This document shows, piece after piece, positions 25,763 through 30,885 of a stretch of DNA of 34,186 nucleotides (within the stretch, counting starts at the first letter, position 1; each line of letters begins with the position of its first letter). Origin of the DNA: Escherichia coli (GTDB taxonomy: Bacteria > Pseudomonadota > Gammaproteobacteria > Enterobacterales > Enterobacteriaceae); the NCBI GenBank assembly GCA_003321845.1, contig GCA_003321845.1_3917.1; one strand, written 5' to 3'. Under the pieces are notes generated by a model. It saw nothing but the letters and a program-made list of their open reading frames with translations. It was not told the origin of the DNA and did not search any database. The translations under genes and the position numbers were made by a program.

Positions 25763-26161
25763 ATGAAGCTTTGGGCTAGTGACTTTGGGACTTTTAAGTA
25801 CACTCGTAACGGTTCACTTGTACGCATCATTGGAAACAATGTAGTTTCAAGAGGCGACAAGGTGTATACACGGTTTACTGTAGAGCTTGTTGAACTGTCA
25901 CCTATTGAGTCTGTGAACAATGGCATGTTCAAGTTTGAGACTTACAATGTCAATGAGCATGGACAATTCAATCCTCTTGGTGAAAGTGGACTTGATATTA
26001 TTTCAGAGCACCCATTGACAAAAGAGCAACTTGCAGGTTACTATAAAACTGTTCTGGAAAGGCAGTTAGCAACACATGAACAAGAAGCTAACTACCATTT
26101 ACAGCATTGCGAAACTTTAAGAGCAAAAATCGAACAAGCAGAGAGAGGTTTTTATGAATAA
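25763..26161 (+). CDS. Hypothetical protein
   Basis: 132-aa ORF with AAGGAG 7 nt upstream of the ATG. Confidence 0.6.
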   Translation: MKLWASDFGTFKYTRNGSLVRIIGNNVVSRGDKVYTRFTVELVELSPIESVNNGMFKFETYNVNEHGQFNPLGESGLDIISEHPLTKEQLAGYYKTVLERQLATHEQEANYHLQHCETLRAKIEQAERGFYE

Positions 26162-26549
26162 TAACAGTCATATCCACGTTAAAGTTGATGTCAGTCGTTA
26201 CAGCGAAAATGAGGAACTAGACCTGCAAGATGCTCTTCTCTTTGAGAAGAATGGTAATCTTCATTTGCATTTTGAAGGTACAAACACATATCTCCACAGA
26301 AGTCGAGATGATGCAGATGGTTGCCCTGTTTTTGCTTGGTATAATTTAGAGTTTCCTCTTTATGCCATCCACTATCCAGATGGTGGGGAAGACTGGACTA
26401 CTCAATCAATCTTTGATGAGCTTAACGGCATTCCGGTTGAGCCAGAAGAGCAAGAGCCTGTTGAACTTACCTTCACTTTTATCAAAGAAGAGAAAGTTGG
26501 TGATTTGTCTGTAACTGAAGCAATTCAAGTCTCACAGGTTATTCGTTAA
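26154..26549 (+). CDS. Hypothetical acidic protein
   Basis: 131-aa ORF with overlapping start, translationally coupled. Confidence 0.55.
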   Translation: MNNNSHIHVKVDVSRYSENEELDLQDALLFEKNGNLHLHFEGTNTYLHRSRDDADGCPVFAWYNLEFPLYAIHYPDGGEDWTTQSIFDELNGIPVEPEEQEPVELTFTFIKEEKVGDLSVTEAIQVSQVIR

Positions 26550-26842
26550 TGAGTAAAGTACAGGTTATATTCCCTATTTGTGACTTCTCACTAGAGCGTG
26601 AACTTGACCTGTACGAAGAAATTACTGACGAAATTATCTGGTCTGTTGTAGAAGAGGCTATCAAGAAACTGTATGGTGGCCTCTTAAACCCATCAAGTAA
26701 AAAGCTCAATACTAAACAAGTAGCTGATACGTACACTTCATATGATGCCTACAACAAACCTTTTGAGAATACCTGCTTTGACCTTATGGTAGGTAACAAC
26801 AAAGTCAATTATTTCTTCGTCAGAGAGTTTAACGATGAGTAA
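26549..26842 (+). CDS. Hypothetical protein
   Basis: 97-aa ORF; ATG overlaps the upstream TAA. Confidence 0.55.
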   Translation: MSKVQVIFPICDFSLERELDLYEEITDEIIWSVVEEAIKKLYGGLLNPSSKKLNTKQVADTYTSYDAYNKPFENTCFDLMVGNNKVNYFFVREFNDE

Positions 26843-27179
26843 GCTCCATGTCGTAGTCTACAAAAACTTCTCAGATATCAAAGAGTCTTTAACCAATAAG
26901 CTTGACATGCAACGGAAAAGACTCTTTTTAATGTACGATATCGACAACTACAACCATCCTAAAGAGTTCAACTACAAAGATGGTACAAAAGTTGTTGAAT
27001 TTGAAGATTCTATAACAGTGTATGTCAAACATGACTTACCAGCAAAGTACATAGGAATGTTAGAGTACTATATATTCAAACATACAGGTATGCGTGGTGA
27101 AGCTGTCAAGATATCTTCTGTAGAAGTTTTTGAGAAACCTAACACACAACTTAAAAAGTATTTAATGAGGAAACTGTAA
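26835..27179 (+). CDS. Hypothetical protein
   Basis: 114-aa ORF, overlapping start. Confidence 0.55.
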   Translation: MSKLHVVVYKNFSDIKESLTNKLDMQRKRLFLMYDIDNYNHPKEFNYKDGTKVVEFEDSITVYVKHDLPAKYIGMLEYYIFKHTGMRGEAVKISSVEVFEKPNTQLKKYLMRKL

Positions 27180-27769
27180 TGTCCGAAGAGCAACAGAATA
27201 TTACCCCACAAGTAACACTAGTCCAACATTTTGGGAACATTGAAGGTTGTGTTGCACTTTTTCAACCAAGTATCAATTCTCCTGCAAAAGTCTGTAAGTT
27301 GACTATGAATGTCAACAATATCAGTGTTTGCCTTGTTGATGAAGTCCAGTACTTCAAATTCAATGACAGAGAGGTTGATGCTGCACTATTGAAGTATCGA
27401 GCAAGCCTCGAAAAAGACATTGACCACAAAGAACTTGTAACACTGTTTGGTGACCTTCACAAGCTTCTTGAAAAGGTTATTAAGCGTACATACTACATGA
27501 ACAATGGTTCAATCGTCACAACTTTGATTTCACCATGTATCTCAGAGCCGATTCTGACTGATGAAGGTGGATACTACGTAGTAGCATCAGCAGATTCTGA
27601 TTGGTGGATGAAAAATACAGCACTGAAGACAGTGATTGAAGCTATTCGTGAGCATATCCCTTCATTCAGCCCGTGGAAAGGCAAAGGTGATGACTTTATC
27701 GCATTGTTGAGCGAAGAAAGTAGCAAACGTAGTGCATTAATGCCTAAGAAATACTCTTGCCGAGTATAA
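27179..27769 (+). CDS. Hypothetical protein
   Basis: 196-aa ORF with TAATG coupling to the upstream gene. Confidence 0.6.
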   Translation: MSEEQQNITPQVTLVQHFGNIEGCVALFQPSINSPAKVCKLTMNVNNISVCLVDEVQYFKFNDREVDAALLKYRASLEKDIDHKELVTLFGDLHKLLEKVIKRTYYMNNGSIVTTLISPCISEPILTDEGGYYVVASADSDWWMKNTALKTVIEAIREHIPSFSPWKGKGDDFIALLSEESSKRSALMPKKYSCRV

Positions 27770-27831
27770 AATATTGACTATAATGGGAGCTATTGAGAGG
27801 TAGTTCCCTTTTTAGTTTCTGGAGAATAGAT

Positions 27832-29092: not shown

Positions 29093-29168
29093 CTGTATGT
29101 GTTCGTTTTGCAATCGCTGAAATGATTAACAAGGCAATCTTAAAAGATGCCTATGGAGAAACTAAGTA

Positions 29169-29393
29169 ATGATTAAGACACCTGTACCAATTTTTGGATT
29201 TCCTTCTATTGAAGAGTTCAAAGTTTATCTTGACAAAAACTTCTACAATGAGCAGCCTGTTACTTTGCTGAAGAGTGACTTATCAGAGCTTCTTGATATG
29301 GTTATCAAGGCAACTTCTGAGAAGGAACCTGAGCAGAAAGCTGAGAAGAAGACTAGTAAGAAATCCGATAAGAAGACTGAAAAGTCTGAGTAG
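29169..29393 (+). CDS. Small protein with Lys/Glu-rich tail
   Basis: 74-aa ORF with GGAG upstream; C-terminus EKEPEQKAEKKTSKKSDKKTEKSE. Confidence 0.5.
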   Translation: MIKTPVPIFGFPSIEEFKVYLDKNFYNEQPVTLLKSDLSELLDMVIKATSEKEPEQKAEKKTSKKSDKKTEKSE

Positions 29394-29446
29394 TAGCTTG
29401 AGGGGTTATTTGATAGCCCCTTTGTAGAAACTTAGAAGGTAGCGAA

Positions 29447-29869
29447 ATGAAAGAGCTTATTGGTAAAAGATTGACAGTTTACTGCTCTAAAACAAAGAAA
29501 CCACTCACTTCTGTGAAAGTCTTTGATGTTGACACCACTGGTGTAGAGTACCCAATCCAATGCACAATAGTTACTCCATTCAATGTAGATGATATGGATT
29601 TTAAAGAGTGTGAAGTGATATCTTTTAATGCTGATGGGTATTGGAGTGGTAAGTTAAACAAGCAATCAAAAGATTTTGATATGCAAATCTTCATCAATGA
29701 AGGCTATATCGGTGTAAAAGATATCATCGTAGAAGCCTATGAAGAAGGTATAATAGATGTTGTGCATGATGTTGAAGAAGCTTTAAAGCTCATTATGCCA
29801 CATTTAGAATCTGGAAAGCTGACTTTAGAGATGCTTAATAGGGTTATTCGGAGAGCTTATGAAAATTAA
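29447..29869 (+). CDS. Hypothetical protein
   Basis: 140-aa ORF with a purine-rich ribosome-binding site. Confidence 0.55.
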   Translation: MKELIGKRLTVYCSKTKKPLTSVKVFDVDTTGVEYPIQCTIVTPFNVDDMDFKECEVISFNADGYWSGKLNKQSKDFDMQIFINEGYIGVKDIIVEAYEEGIIDVVHDVEEALKLIMPHLESGKLTLEMLNRVIRRAYEN

Positions 29870-30323
29870 AGAAGTAGTCCAAAAAGCAATGCTTGACAAT
29901 TCAACTAAACATGAAATGTACATAGAGATTTGTGATAAGTTGAATTGTTCAAGACATGCTGCTAAGGTTCTTGTACATTGTTTTATCTGGGAATGCTCAG
30001 AGGCTTATATGCAACATGTAGCTTTTGATAGTTCTCACTTACTAGGTGATGTAGAAGCTGGTGAGAAGCTAAAAGAACCTGAGATGAAAACAGTCCCTAA
30101 AGTTGGTAATGTATACCCTCTTAAAGATTTTAAGACTGGAAAGATTGTTGCAAAAGGTGTAGTAGAATCTGTTTATCACGATGGTAAATACTTACTTAAA
30201 ATATTTGAGTATGATAGTCAATACACACACTTATGTGGGATTACATTCTTAGTAACAGAAGAAGACCTCATTAAGAACAACGGCAACAAGTTTGCAGTAC
30301 CAGCTTACCAAGTTTTACAATAA
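29859..30323 (+). CDS. Hypothetical protein
   Basis: 154-aa ORF overlapping the upstream gene. Confidence 0.55.
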   Translation: MKIKEVVQKAMLDNSTKHEMYIEICDKLNCSRHAAKVLVHCFIWECSEAYMQHVAFDSSHLLGDVEAGEKLKEPEMKTVPKVGNVYPLKDFKTGKIVAKGVVESVYHDGKYLLKIFEYDSQYTHLCGITFLVTEEDLIKNNGNKFAVPAYQVLQ

Positions 30324-30885
30324 CGGTGTGATAGATATGAAAAAAGATAACTTAAAAGAAGTTGAAGGTAACTATCTAGTCCTTGACTGGAATGATATTC
30401 GGGAAGGACTCTCCGAAGAAAATTTTGACTGGTTCCAACAAATTATCTTTGCAGTACGGCATAACAGAGAAGTTGAAAATGGTAAAGAGCCATTAGAAGG
30501 AATCTTTGTAGAAAGGTCTTATCCGTTCTATGAAGACACTTTGCAGAAAGTTAAGATGTACTTTAGACAGAAGAACCGTAAAGTGGTCACTATGGTCTCT
30601 CTTGGTGGACAGAGTATGTCTGTGATGGAAGATATCAACCCTAAGAGACCGAGTAAAGGTGTTTGTATAAAAATCACAGGTCATGAAGAGTATATCTCAG
30701 TGGATGACTTTAGAGCATTCTGTAGTGGTTCTTGTGTCTTTAATGGTTTTCACTATGATATCCGAGTTTACCCAATCAAGGGAGATGATATTATGATGCA
30801 GGTATTTGATAACAATAATGGGTTTACTCATTTTTATCAGACAACCAAGTCATCATTAAAAACAGTTCTGGAAACACTGATTTAA
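30292..30885 (+). CDS. Hypothetical protein (start uncertain; alternative ATG near 30337)
   Basis: 197-aa ORF, last gene of the plus-strand operon; overlaps the upstream gene by ~32 nt. Confidence 0.5.
   Translation: MQYQLTKFYNNGVIDMKKDNLKEVEGNYLVLDWNDIREGLSEENFDWFQQIIFAVRHNREVENGKEPLEGIFVERSYPFYEDTLQKVKMYFRQKNRKVVTMVSLGGQSMSVMEDINPKRPSKGVCIKITGHEEYISVDDFRAFCSGSCVFNGFHYDIRVYPIKGDDIMMQVFDNNNGFTHFYQTTKSSLKTVLETLI

Follow-up and report, generated by a model that had tools for sequence, protein, structure and literature searches.

What do the small genes that follow the endolysin gene contribute to the life of a Felix O1-type phage? We addressed this question in a 34,186-nucleotide (nt) stretch of DNA (hereafter the window; contig GCA_003321845.1_3917.1, filed under Escherichia coli), in which a block of small plus-strand open reading frames (ORFs) extends from position 25763 to 30885. 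A first-pass annotation of the sequence had taken this block for an early-expressed phage cassette of host-takeover or anti-defence genes, an interpretation that is partly supported by the analysis presented here. The block is an already known, ordinary accessory module of "hypothetical proteins": its genes carry annotations in over 250 genomes and have been through two genome-wide functional screens. At a probability of about 0.55, we favor the reading that it is a conserved, lineage-specific, non-structural accessory module of the Ounavirinae, the products of which would adjust host physiology or host range and would be dispensable for the core lytic cycle; the host-directed part of this role is what we infer from the evidence below.

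A near-identity search identified the window as Felixounavirus DNA (Felix O1-like myophages of Escherichia, Salmonella, and Shigella). The 5.1-kb block was matched by 240 phage records, nearly all of them Felixounavirus, and in 156 of the 240 at least 80% of the block was covered at ~90–93% identity; the best match was Escherichia phage radambza (93.1%). The twelve plus-strand ORFs of the block are named o1–o12, and o8a denotes an additional micro-ORF. Sizes are in amino acids (aa), and isoelectric points (pI) are given where they stand out:

25763–26161, plus strand: o1, 132 aa; phrog_4266; Felix O1 gp34, Bas63 g122, SUSP1 agp123.
26154–26549, plus strand: o2, 131 aa; net charge −18, pI 4.4; phrog_4348.
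26549–26842, plus strand: o3, 97 aa; acidic, pI 4.5; phrog_4385.
26835–27179, plus strand: o4, 114 aa; basic, pI 9.3; phrog_4040; Felix O1 gp31.
27179–27769, plus strand: o5, 196 aa; phrog_4109.
27832–28377, plus strand: o6, 181 aa (194 aa if started at TTG 27793); phrog_5380; a variable slot.
28374–28592, plus strand: o7, 72 aa; basic, pI 9.7; phrog_4459.
28589–29092, plus strand: o8, 167 aa; phrog_4343; Bas63 g116.
29074–29169, plus strand: o8a, a hydrophobic/amphipathic micro-protein of 31 aa; phrog_6279; SUSP1 agp115.
29169–29393, plus strand: o9, 74 aa; phrog_4457; Bas63 g114.
29447–29869, plus strand: o10, 140 aa, acidic; phrog_7193; a variable slot.
29859–30323, plus strand: o11, 154 aa; phrog_4713.
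30337–30885, plus strand: o12, 182 aa (197 aa if started at TTG 30292); phrog_4330.

About 97.5% of the block's 5123 bases are coding. The twelve consecutive plus-strand ORFs that the first-pass annotation had placed after the lysozyme gene and its terminator, up to 30885, are all present and real. The count had, however, missed a thirteenth conserved gene of 31 codons, o8a, which is annotated in Bas63, SUSP1, Mijalis, and Sf14, and the sizes of the twelve range from 72 to 197 aa, there being no 53-aa ORF of the kind reported as the smallest. The described start-to-stop overlap holds within three groups. In the first, o1/o2 and o3/o4 each overlap by 8 nt, while o2/o3 and o4/o5 are joined by TAATG; in the second, o6/o7 and o7/o8 are joined by ATGA, o8/o8a overlap by 19 nt and o8a/o9 are joined by TAATG; in the third, o10/o11 overlap by 11 nt and 13 nt separate o11 from o12. 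Between these groups the chain is broken by gaps of 62 nt (o5–o6) and 53 nt (o9–o10), each of which carries a hairpin (27785–27808 and 29400–29422). The two gaps and the presence of o8a thus resolve the block into thirteen genes in three coupled groups (o1–o5, o6–o9, and o10–o12) rather than a single chain. Shine-Dalgarno-like motifs of the GGAG/GAGG type lie 6–12 nt upstream of most ORFs, with only weak ones at o3 and o4. Homology points to ATG 27832 as the likely start of o6, to ATG 28589 for o8, and to either ATG 30337 or TTG 30292 for o12.

Purifying selection acts on every ORF of the block, o8a included. The annotated regions of 12 relatives were compared: Felix O1, Bas63, XTG1, radambza, and Si3 (Felixounavirus); SUSP1, SUSP2, and mistaenkt (Suspvirus); and Mijalis, Silverhawkium, Sf14, and KMM4 (Mooglevirus). 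Pairwise ratios of nonsynonymous to synonymous substitution rates (dN/dS) were ~0.03–0.3 for the conserved ORFs and reached ~0.5 for the variable o10; the value for lysozyme was 0.08–0.15, and o8a gave 0.12–0.29 between genera. Since these ratios are like that of lysozyme, the ORFs are real genes and more than chance reading frames. Moreover, each of them has a full-length match to its own PHROG family or orthologue (E 1e-43 to 1e-109), every such PHROG family being of unknown function.

In all 12 relatives the block sits downstream of the genes for Hex-Dec, a capsid decoration protein, and the endolysin, and runs up to a long non-coding repeat region. The order common to the three genera is lysin, o1–o5, hairpin, (o6) o7 o8 o8a o9, hairpin, (o10) o11 o12, terminator, and then ~1.6–1.8 kb of non-coding DNA. 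Eleven of the 13 genes keep their order across Felixounavirus, Suspvirus, and Mooglevirus, with intergenus amino-acid identities of 47–79%. In contrast to this backbone, o6 and o10 are patchy, fast-evolving positions with bimodal identity. o6 is absent from Bas63, Si3, and mistaenkt, is only 29–45% identical between genera and occurs in 122 of ~262 related records; o10 is absent from Felix O1, Bas63, and most other relatives, occurs in 117 of ~262 related records and has alleles at ~93% and ~55% identity. Si3 is also without o11. Beyond the three genera, detection was limited to o4 and o5, which in the distantly related Ounavirinae Wc4 and LPML1 are 25–28% identical and likewise follow a lysozyme gene. 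The most widely conserved member is o5, for which an indexed search gave only 17 clusters and HMMER, run exhaustively over 1.84 billion proteins, 14 representatives. Homologues of o12 form 114 clusters, all within this phage lineage, and the search for o8 homologues returned close relatives only. No match was found in a six-frame search of 72,556 plasmids with all 13 proteins. Profile-profile comparison of all 13 families gave no sign of paralogy within the block (best probability 3%) and ruled out SH3-like N-terminal domains shared among the block proteins, which had been a first impression.

Some matching records carry unexpected host names. GU169904 (Staphylococcus phage SA1) and the protein P0067, labelled Methanobrevibacter gottschalkii, match the block at 88–94% identity, and OK283618 (Listeria phage LPML1) has a post-lysozyme block of the Ounavirinae type in which o5 identity is only 26%. 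The Staphylococcus, Listeria, and Methanobrevibacter labels on these records likely reflect contamination or a wrong host.

As the first-pass annotation had noted, the products carry no recognizable motif: a Pfam search with all block ORFs, which included the catalogued anti-restriction families, gave nothing above cut-off. The weak similarity of o5 to DUF5092 (E = 5e-4) does not reach the gathering score and was seen again in a single relative. PADLOC returned no match among the ten ORFs scanned (all but o7, o8a, and o9), and sequence searches of the PDB with o1, o2, o6, and o11 and an o12 profile gave a best E of 0.35. Sequence homology to described anti-defence families, such as Ocr/ArdA-type DNA mimics, anti-CRISPRs, and NAD-regenerating enzymes, was thus found neither in Pfam, for all ORFs, nor in the PDB, for o1, o2, o6, o11, and o12, and no block ORF matched a structural family in PHROG or Pfam. 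GenBank labels o2 homologues in several records (L001, L013, and L015 among them) as "D-alanyl-D-alanine carboxypeptidase". We rejected this assignment for o2, which matched no Pfam family at E ≤ 0.1 (peptidase families S11/S13 and VanY/M15 being absent) and the best PDB match of which was unrelated (E = 0.6); with neither Pfam nor PDB support, the label looks like a propagated annotation error. Two features that had been picked out by eye were readily located. The two-helix membrane protein is o8, in which a conserved soluble N-terminal domain of 85 aa is followed by two hydrophobic segments (approximately residues 86–110 and 122–144, predicted transmembrane helices) and a charged C-terminus. 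The peptide with the charged Lys/Glu tail is o9, a conserved 50-aa domain with a variable tail rich in Lys, Glu, and Ser. The micro-protein o8a between them has one hydrophobic segment.

Published experiments on orthologues bear on when these genes are used and whether they are needed. By synteny, Felix O1 gp34 to gp24 correspond to o1 to o12 (o10 being absent), as do Bas63 g122 to g112 and SUSP1 agp123 to agp112. End-point reverse-transcription PCR (RT-PCR) of Felix O1 showed that gp24, gp25, gp26, gp28, gp29, gp32, gp33, and gp34 peak at 25 min, together with the lysin gp35; gp31 (o4) peaks at 5 min, as the sole early transcript of the block, and gp30 at 60 min (PMC3185647). The genes are hence transcribed in Felix O1, and these timings do not bear out the early expression that had been predicted for the block. 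In the same study, mass spectrometry of Felix O1 virions listed the neighboring gp23 and gp36 and none of gp24–gp34, from which the block genes appear to be non-structural. Together with the missing structural PHROG and Pfam matches, this led us to discard the possibility that the products are virion components; neither structural nor metabolic families came up for any of them.

In SUSP1, CRISPRi-ART knockdown in laboratory E. coli scored 12 of 12 homologues as "Not Fit", that is, knockdown had no fitness effect (PMC11879866, supplements 8 and 16). The o5 homologue agp119 is an unexplained outlier in these data, with a score of −4.8 where its neighbors lie between about −1 and +1. In Bas63, the PhageMaP study found g114 (o9) and g116 (o8) among four genes that were more essential on E. 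coli S17-1, which carries transfer (tra) genes, than on three other K-12 strains; XseB-like and FliJ-like structural comparisons offered there for Bas63 genes are explicitly speculative (PMC11482910). The endolysin g123 behaved as a trigger of retron Ec67 in that study. Our literature search found no paper that assigns a function to a block gene, and the retron Eco2 and DRT7 papers that name Felixounavirus or Bas63 concern other genes. The accessory character that the first-pass annotation had proposed is upheld by the SUSP1 scores, by the conditional importance of the o8 and o9 homologues on S17-1 and by the patchy occurrence of o6 and o10.

The layout of the block suggests how these genes might be controlled. 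The following elements were located:

25689–25717, plus strand: sigma-70-like candidate promoter TTGACA-17-TATCTT (10/12 consensus positions) inside the 3′-terminal part of the lysozyme gene, immediately ahead of the next element.
25721–25738, plus strand: terminator hairpin with T-run, Felix O1 "t35"; −12.9 kcal/mol, z −3.9; identical in 8 phages.
27757–27784, plus strand: sigma-70-like candidate promoter TTGCCG-16-TATAAT (10/12), directly before the next element.
27785–27808, plus strand: terminator hairpin with T-run between o5 and o6, Felix O1 "t29"; −13.9 kcal/mol.
29400–29422, plus strand: stable hairpin with a weak T-run between o9 and o10, −13.7 kcal/mol, followed by a conserved ribosome-binding and start region.
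30894–30920, plus strand: strong terminator closing the block, −15 kcal/mol.

The four bounding hairpins have z-scores of −3.2 to −3.9, and t35 and t29 are listed as terminators in the Felix O1 genome paper (PMC3185647). This part of the window is enriched in terminator-like sites (17 vs 6.5 ± 2.6 expected). The −35/−10 layout at 25689–25717 is kept in 8 phages of three genera, in part because the site overlaps coding sequence. In the spacer between o5 and o6, ten phages of the three genera conserve the hexamers TTGACC or TTGACA and TATGAT at a distance of 17–18 nt, while the sequence between the hexamers varies, which is the pattern expected of a working promoter. The window itself differs at this site: relative to ten relatives in which the o5 stop codon overlaps the −35 box, it has a 1-nt deletion within 27755–27790. 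Here o5 is three codons longer (ending in YSCRV), the −35 box is changed to TTGCCG, and the −10 box matches the consensus TATAAT perfectly where the relatives have TATGAT. Judged from sequence, both sigma-70-like sites may act as promoters. Transcription starting ~7 nt past each −10 box would fall within the 5′ arm of the adjoining hairpin, in which case the hairpin could terminate transcripts arriving from upstream and yet spare the new one. Read-through from the late Hex-Dec/lysin transcript would then be stopped at the hairpin, and transcription would restart there. Our literature search found no RNA sequencing study of a Felixounavirus.

On these grounds, we propose that the thirteen small genes form three translationally coupled operons, o1–o5, o6-o7-o8-o8a-o9, and o10-o11-o12. 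Each operon would be closed by a terminator hairpin, and the first two would each be preceded by a host-type promoter whose −10 box abuts the upstream terminator. The products would be intracellular or inner-membrane proteins and not virion parts: the acidic o2 and o3, the basic o4 and o7, the putative membrane hairpin o8 with the micro-peptide o8a and the charged-tail protein o9, and o12 as a predicted binder of single-stranded nucleic acid. The block would be dispensable on laboratory E. coli, with some genes mattering only on particular hosts, and the heads of the second and third operons (o6 and o10) would be the likeliest sites of strain-specific counter-measures.

The suggestion for o12 comes from an AlphaFold2 model based on a 25-sequence alignment, with a predicted local distance difference test score (pLDDT) of 77.5 for the whole protein and over 90 for the C-terminal domain, which is predicted to comprise strands 98–102, 108–113, 123–127, and 132–136, helix 137–143, strands 148–151, 155–161, 166–173, and 179–185, and helix 186–196. 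The predicted topology (four strands, helix, linker, four strands, helix) corresponds to that by which the type I PC4-like fold is defined (PMC7549692). The C-terminal domain of o12 is moderately likely to adopt a Whirly/PC4-like fold, and on the strength of this model o12 may bind nucleic acid.

Several observations weigh against the reading of the block as an accessory, host-directed module. A function has been demonstrated for none of the block's genes. Dispensability was measured in relatives, namely SUSP1 (at ~50–70% identity) and Bas63, and by CRISPRi, a method whose false negatives are acknowledged. That eleven genes are so strongly conserved in three genera could just as well reflect a core role to which laboratory screens are blind. 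Expression within the proposed first operon is scattered, with peaks at 5 min for gp31, 60 min for gp30 and 25 min for the rest, a poor fit to simple co-transcription, end-point RT-PCR being a crude measure; and promoter-like matches are not enriched over the region (43 vs 33.4 ± 5.6 expected). The o5 model is of low confidence (pLDDT 62) and has no fold match. For o12, Foldseek gave no hit at E ≤ 0.001, the top probabilities (0.96–0.98) going to SsgB and MRP at TM-scores of 0.33–0.49, and the Whirly/PC4-like call rests on a predicted model to which neither Pfam nor the PDB adds support at the sequence level.

Among the alternatives, the one that survives best is the original proposal of an anti-defence or host-shutoff cassette, which would inhibit restriction, CRISPR or abortive infection or shut down host functions; we regard it as possible and clearly less probable than the accessory-module reading. 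The block has the look of such a cassette in that its ORFs are small, lineage-specific and non-essential on laboratory strains, and lie in coupled operons with candidate host-type promoters of their own. Inhibitors that mimic DNA have a highly acidic charge profile, and the very acidic o2 and o3 share it. The divergent alleles of the patchy o6 and o10 and the greater need for Bas63 g114 and g116 on S17-1 point the same way. However, when Bas63 knockouts were screened against 12 defence systems, the validated counters were g77, g79, g80, g84, g85, and g130, none of them in the block (PMC11482910), and a remarkable sensitivity of Bas63 to several restriction-modification systems has been described. 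The block also lacks Pfam matches to anti-restriction families, and most of its Felix O1 transcripts peak at 25 rather than 5 min. Finally, the syntenic backbone of 11 of the 13 genes, held at dN/dS 0.03–0.3 over three genera, is unlike the rapid exchange typical of anti-defence loci or a fast-turnover counter-defence island. The anti-defence role suggested in the first-pass annotation is not supported by these data.

A second alternative arises from the DNA that follows the block. The non-coding stretch 30921–32500 (1.6 kb) contains 26 copies of YTAACAR, 22 forward and 4 reverse, about half of them spaced 9–12 nt apart. Their density is 16.5 per kb, compared with 1.0 per kb in the rest of the window, and the core of the array spans 30995–32072. 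A YTAACAR array is found at this position in Felix O1, Bas63, SUSP2, Mijalis, and Silverhawkium, which represent all three genera. Of the distant relatives, Wc4 also carries YTAACAR repeats, and the analogous array of LPML1 is built from CTTTACA. No mention of a repeat array turned up when the Felix O1 genome paper was searched by keyword. The first or last base of several GenBank records of the group falls within ~1–2 kb of the block, in or near the repeat stretch. The array may be an origin, a genome-end, a packaging or a protein-binding array.

It is conceivable, though doubtful, that o11 and o12 are DNA- or RNA-binding proteins acting on this 1.1-kb array as a lineage-specific origin, partition, packaging or genome-end system that is not host-directed. 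The predicted fold of o12 would fit such a role, as would o11, whose N-terminal 60 aa are helical and highly conserved and look helix-turn-helix-like by eye. The array begins ~100 bp past the o12 stop, is dense and phased at 9–12 nt, and keeps its position across three genera, with the analogous arrays of Wc4 and LPML1 as further parallels. Of an origin-binding protein, however, one would expect essentiality and a distribution that follows that of its sites. SUSP1 agp112 and agp113 are both "Not Fit", Si3 lacks o11, and an array is retained in Wc4 and LPML1, where no o12 could be detected, so that both the knockdown scores and the patchy co-occurrence speak against the link; in addition, the binding of single strands by Whirly-type proteins is largely independent of sequence (PMC7549692). 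A related composite idea strikes us as equally speculative: o12, possibly with o11, would be a Whirly/PC4-type binder of single-stranded nucleic acid in a virulent myophage of ordinary size and would work with the ~26 helically phased repeats in a lineage-specific system for a replication origin, genome ends or RNA regulation, and o8, o8a, and o9 would separately overcome an exclusion function of S17-1. We take the tra genes of that strain to reside on a chromosomally integrated RP4 with a Mu insertion.

The weakest alternative, that the block or its middle operon controls lysis, with o8 supplying the holin or antiholin still missing from Felix O1-type phages in partnership with o8a and o9, is improbable: the block lies downstream of the endolysin on the same strand, o8 has two predicted transmembrane helices and a charged C-terminus, most genes peak with the lysin at 25 min in Felix O1 and no holin is found beside the Felix O1 lysin (PMC3185647), but six genes and two terminators separate the lysin from o8, the conserved 85-aa domain, presumably cytoplasmic, is unlike small class II holins, the candidates named for Felix O1 are gp79, 116, 118, 119, and 131 and not gp27 (PMC3185647), the spanins and the genes described as holins lie elsewhere in Bas63, and knockdown of SUSP1 agp116 was without effect. 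With 167 aa, a soluble N-terminal domain, a position far from the lysin and membership in phrog_4343, which is a family of unknown function and not a lysis family, o8 was rejected as a holin.

The surroundings of the block also fit Felixounavirus, through a transfer RNA (tRNA) cluster, a TROVE/vWA protein, an Ig-repeat protein, and a lysozyme of family PF00959:

15857–20201, minus strand: 22 tRNA genes; Felix O1 likewise has 22.
20367–21782, minus strand: TROVE/vWA (DUF2828 + DUF7788) "RNA-binding" protein, just upstream of the tRNA cluster.
23862–25247, plus strand: Ig-repeat protein of 461 aa with four Ig-like domains, counterpart of the Bas63 Hoc-like hexamer decoration protein Hex-Dec.
25247–25711, plus strand: lysozyme (endolysin), PF00959 (E = 1e-40).

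The TROVE/vWA protein is the counterpart of Bas63 gp130, a counter to the "ppl" defence system validated by PhageMaP; a published anti-defence gene is thus present inside the window, yet outside the block. Hex-Dec was seen in the cryo-electron microscopy structure of Bas63, and "tail protein" is a frequent mis-annotation of it. According to the paper describing that structure, four predicted Ig domains occurred in Bas63 alone among the felixounaviruses recognized by the International Committee on Taxonomy of Viruses that were analyzed there.

What our analysis adds to the known module is a three-operon map with composite terminator-promoter junctions and two variable slots, o6 and o10, as well as attention to the micro-ORF o8a, a fold prediction for o12 and the neighboring repeat array. 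Felix O1-type phages serve in the typing of Salmonella and in biocontrol and therapy, and yet conserved genes to which no role has been assigned make up roughly one sixth of the window. The S17-1 phenotype of two homologues hints at a tuning of host range; should the block have that effect, it would offer phage engineers a practical target, and defined deletions within it could free ~5 kb of cargo space.

The closest known counterparts are the orthologues by synteny. Felix O1 gp24–gp34 (Felix01p050–p068) and Bas63 g112–g122 are 81–100% identical to the block and share its terminators; SUSP1 agp112–agp123 are 30–79% identical, in the same order downstream of the endolysin and with the same terminators. 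This window has both variable genes, o6 and o10, whereas Bas63 has neither, and Felix O1 and SUSP1 lack o10. For o12, the comparison is with PC4-like and Whirly proteins (plant Whirly p24, WHY2, trypanosome MRP1/MRP2, Pur-alpha, and SsgB) and with ChmC, an RNA-binding protein of nucleus-forming jumbo phages that provides a phage precedent identified in the same way (10.1101/2023.09.22.559000). None of these has sequence similarity or a Pfam match to o12, which unlike them carries an extra helical N-terminal domain; moreover, ChmC is essential in its own phage and the SUSP1 homologue of o12 is not.

In overall character, the block resembles phage accessory clusters such as the small non-essential early genes of T7 and T4, which in T7 extend up to g0.7. 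Those clusters are likewise small, coupled, lineage-restricted, equipped with host-type promoters and dispensable in the laboratory. Unlike them, the block has a backbone that is strongly conserved over three genera, follows late genes instead of occupying the leading genome end and, by the Felix O1 timing, would be expressed in the middle rather than the early phase of infection.

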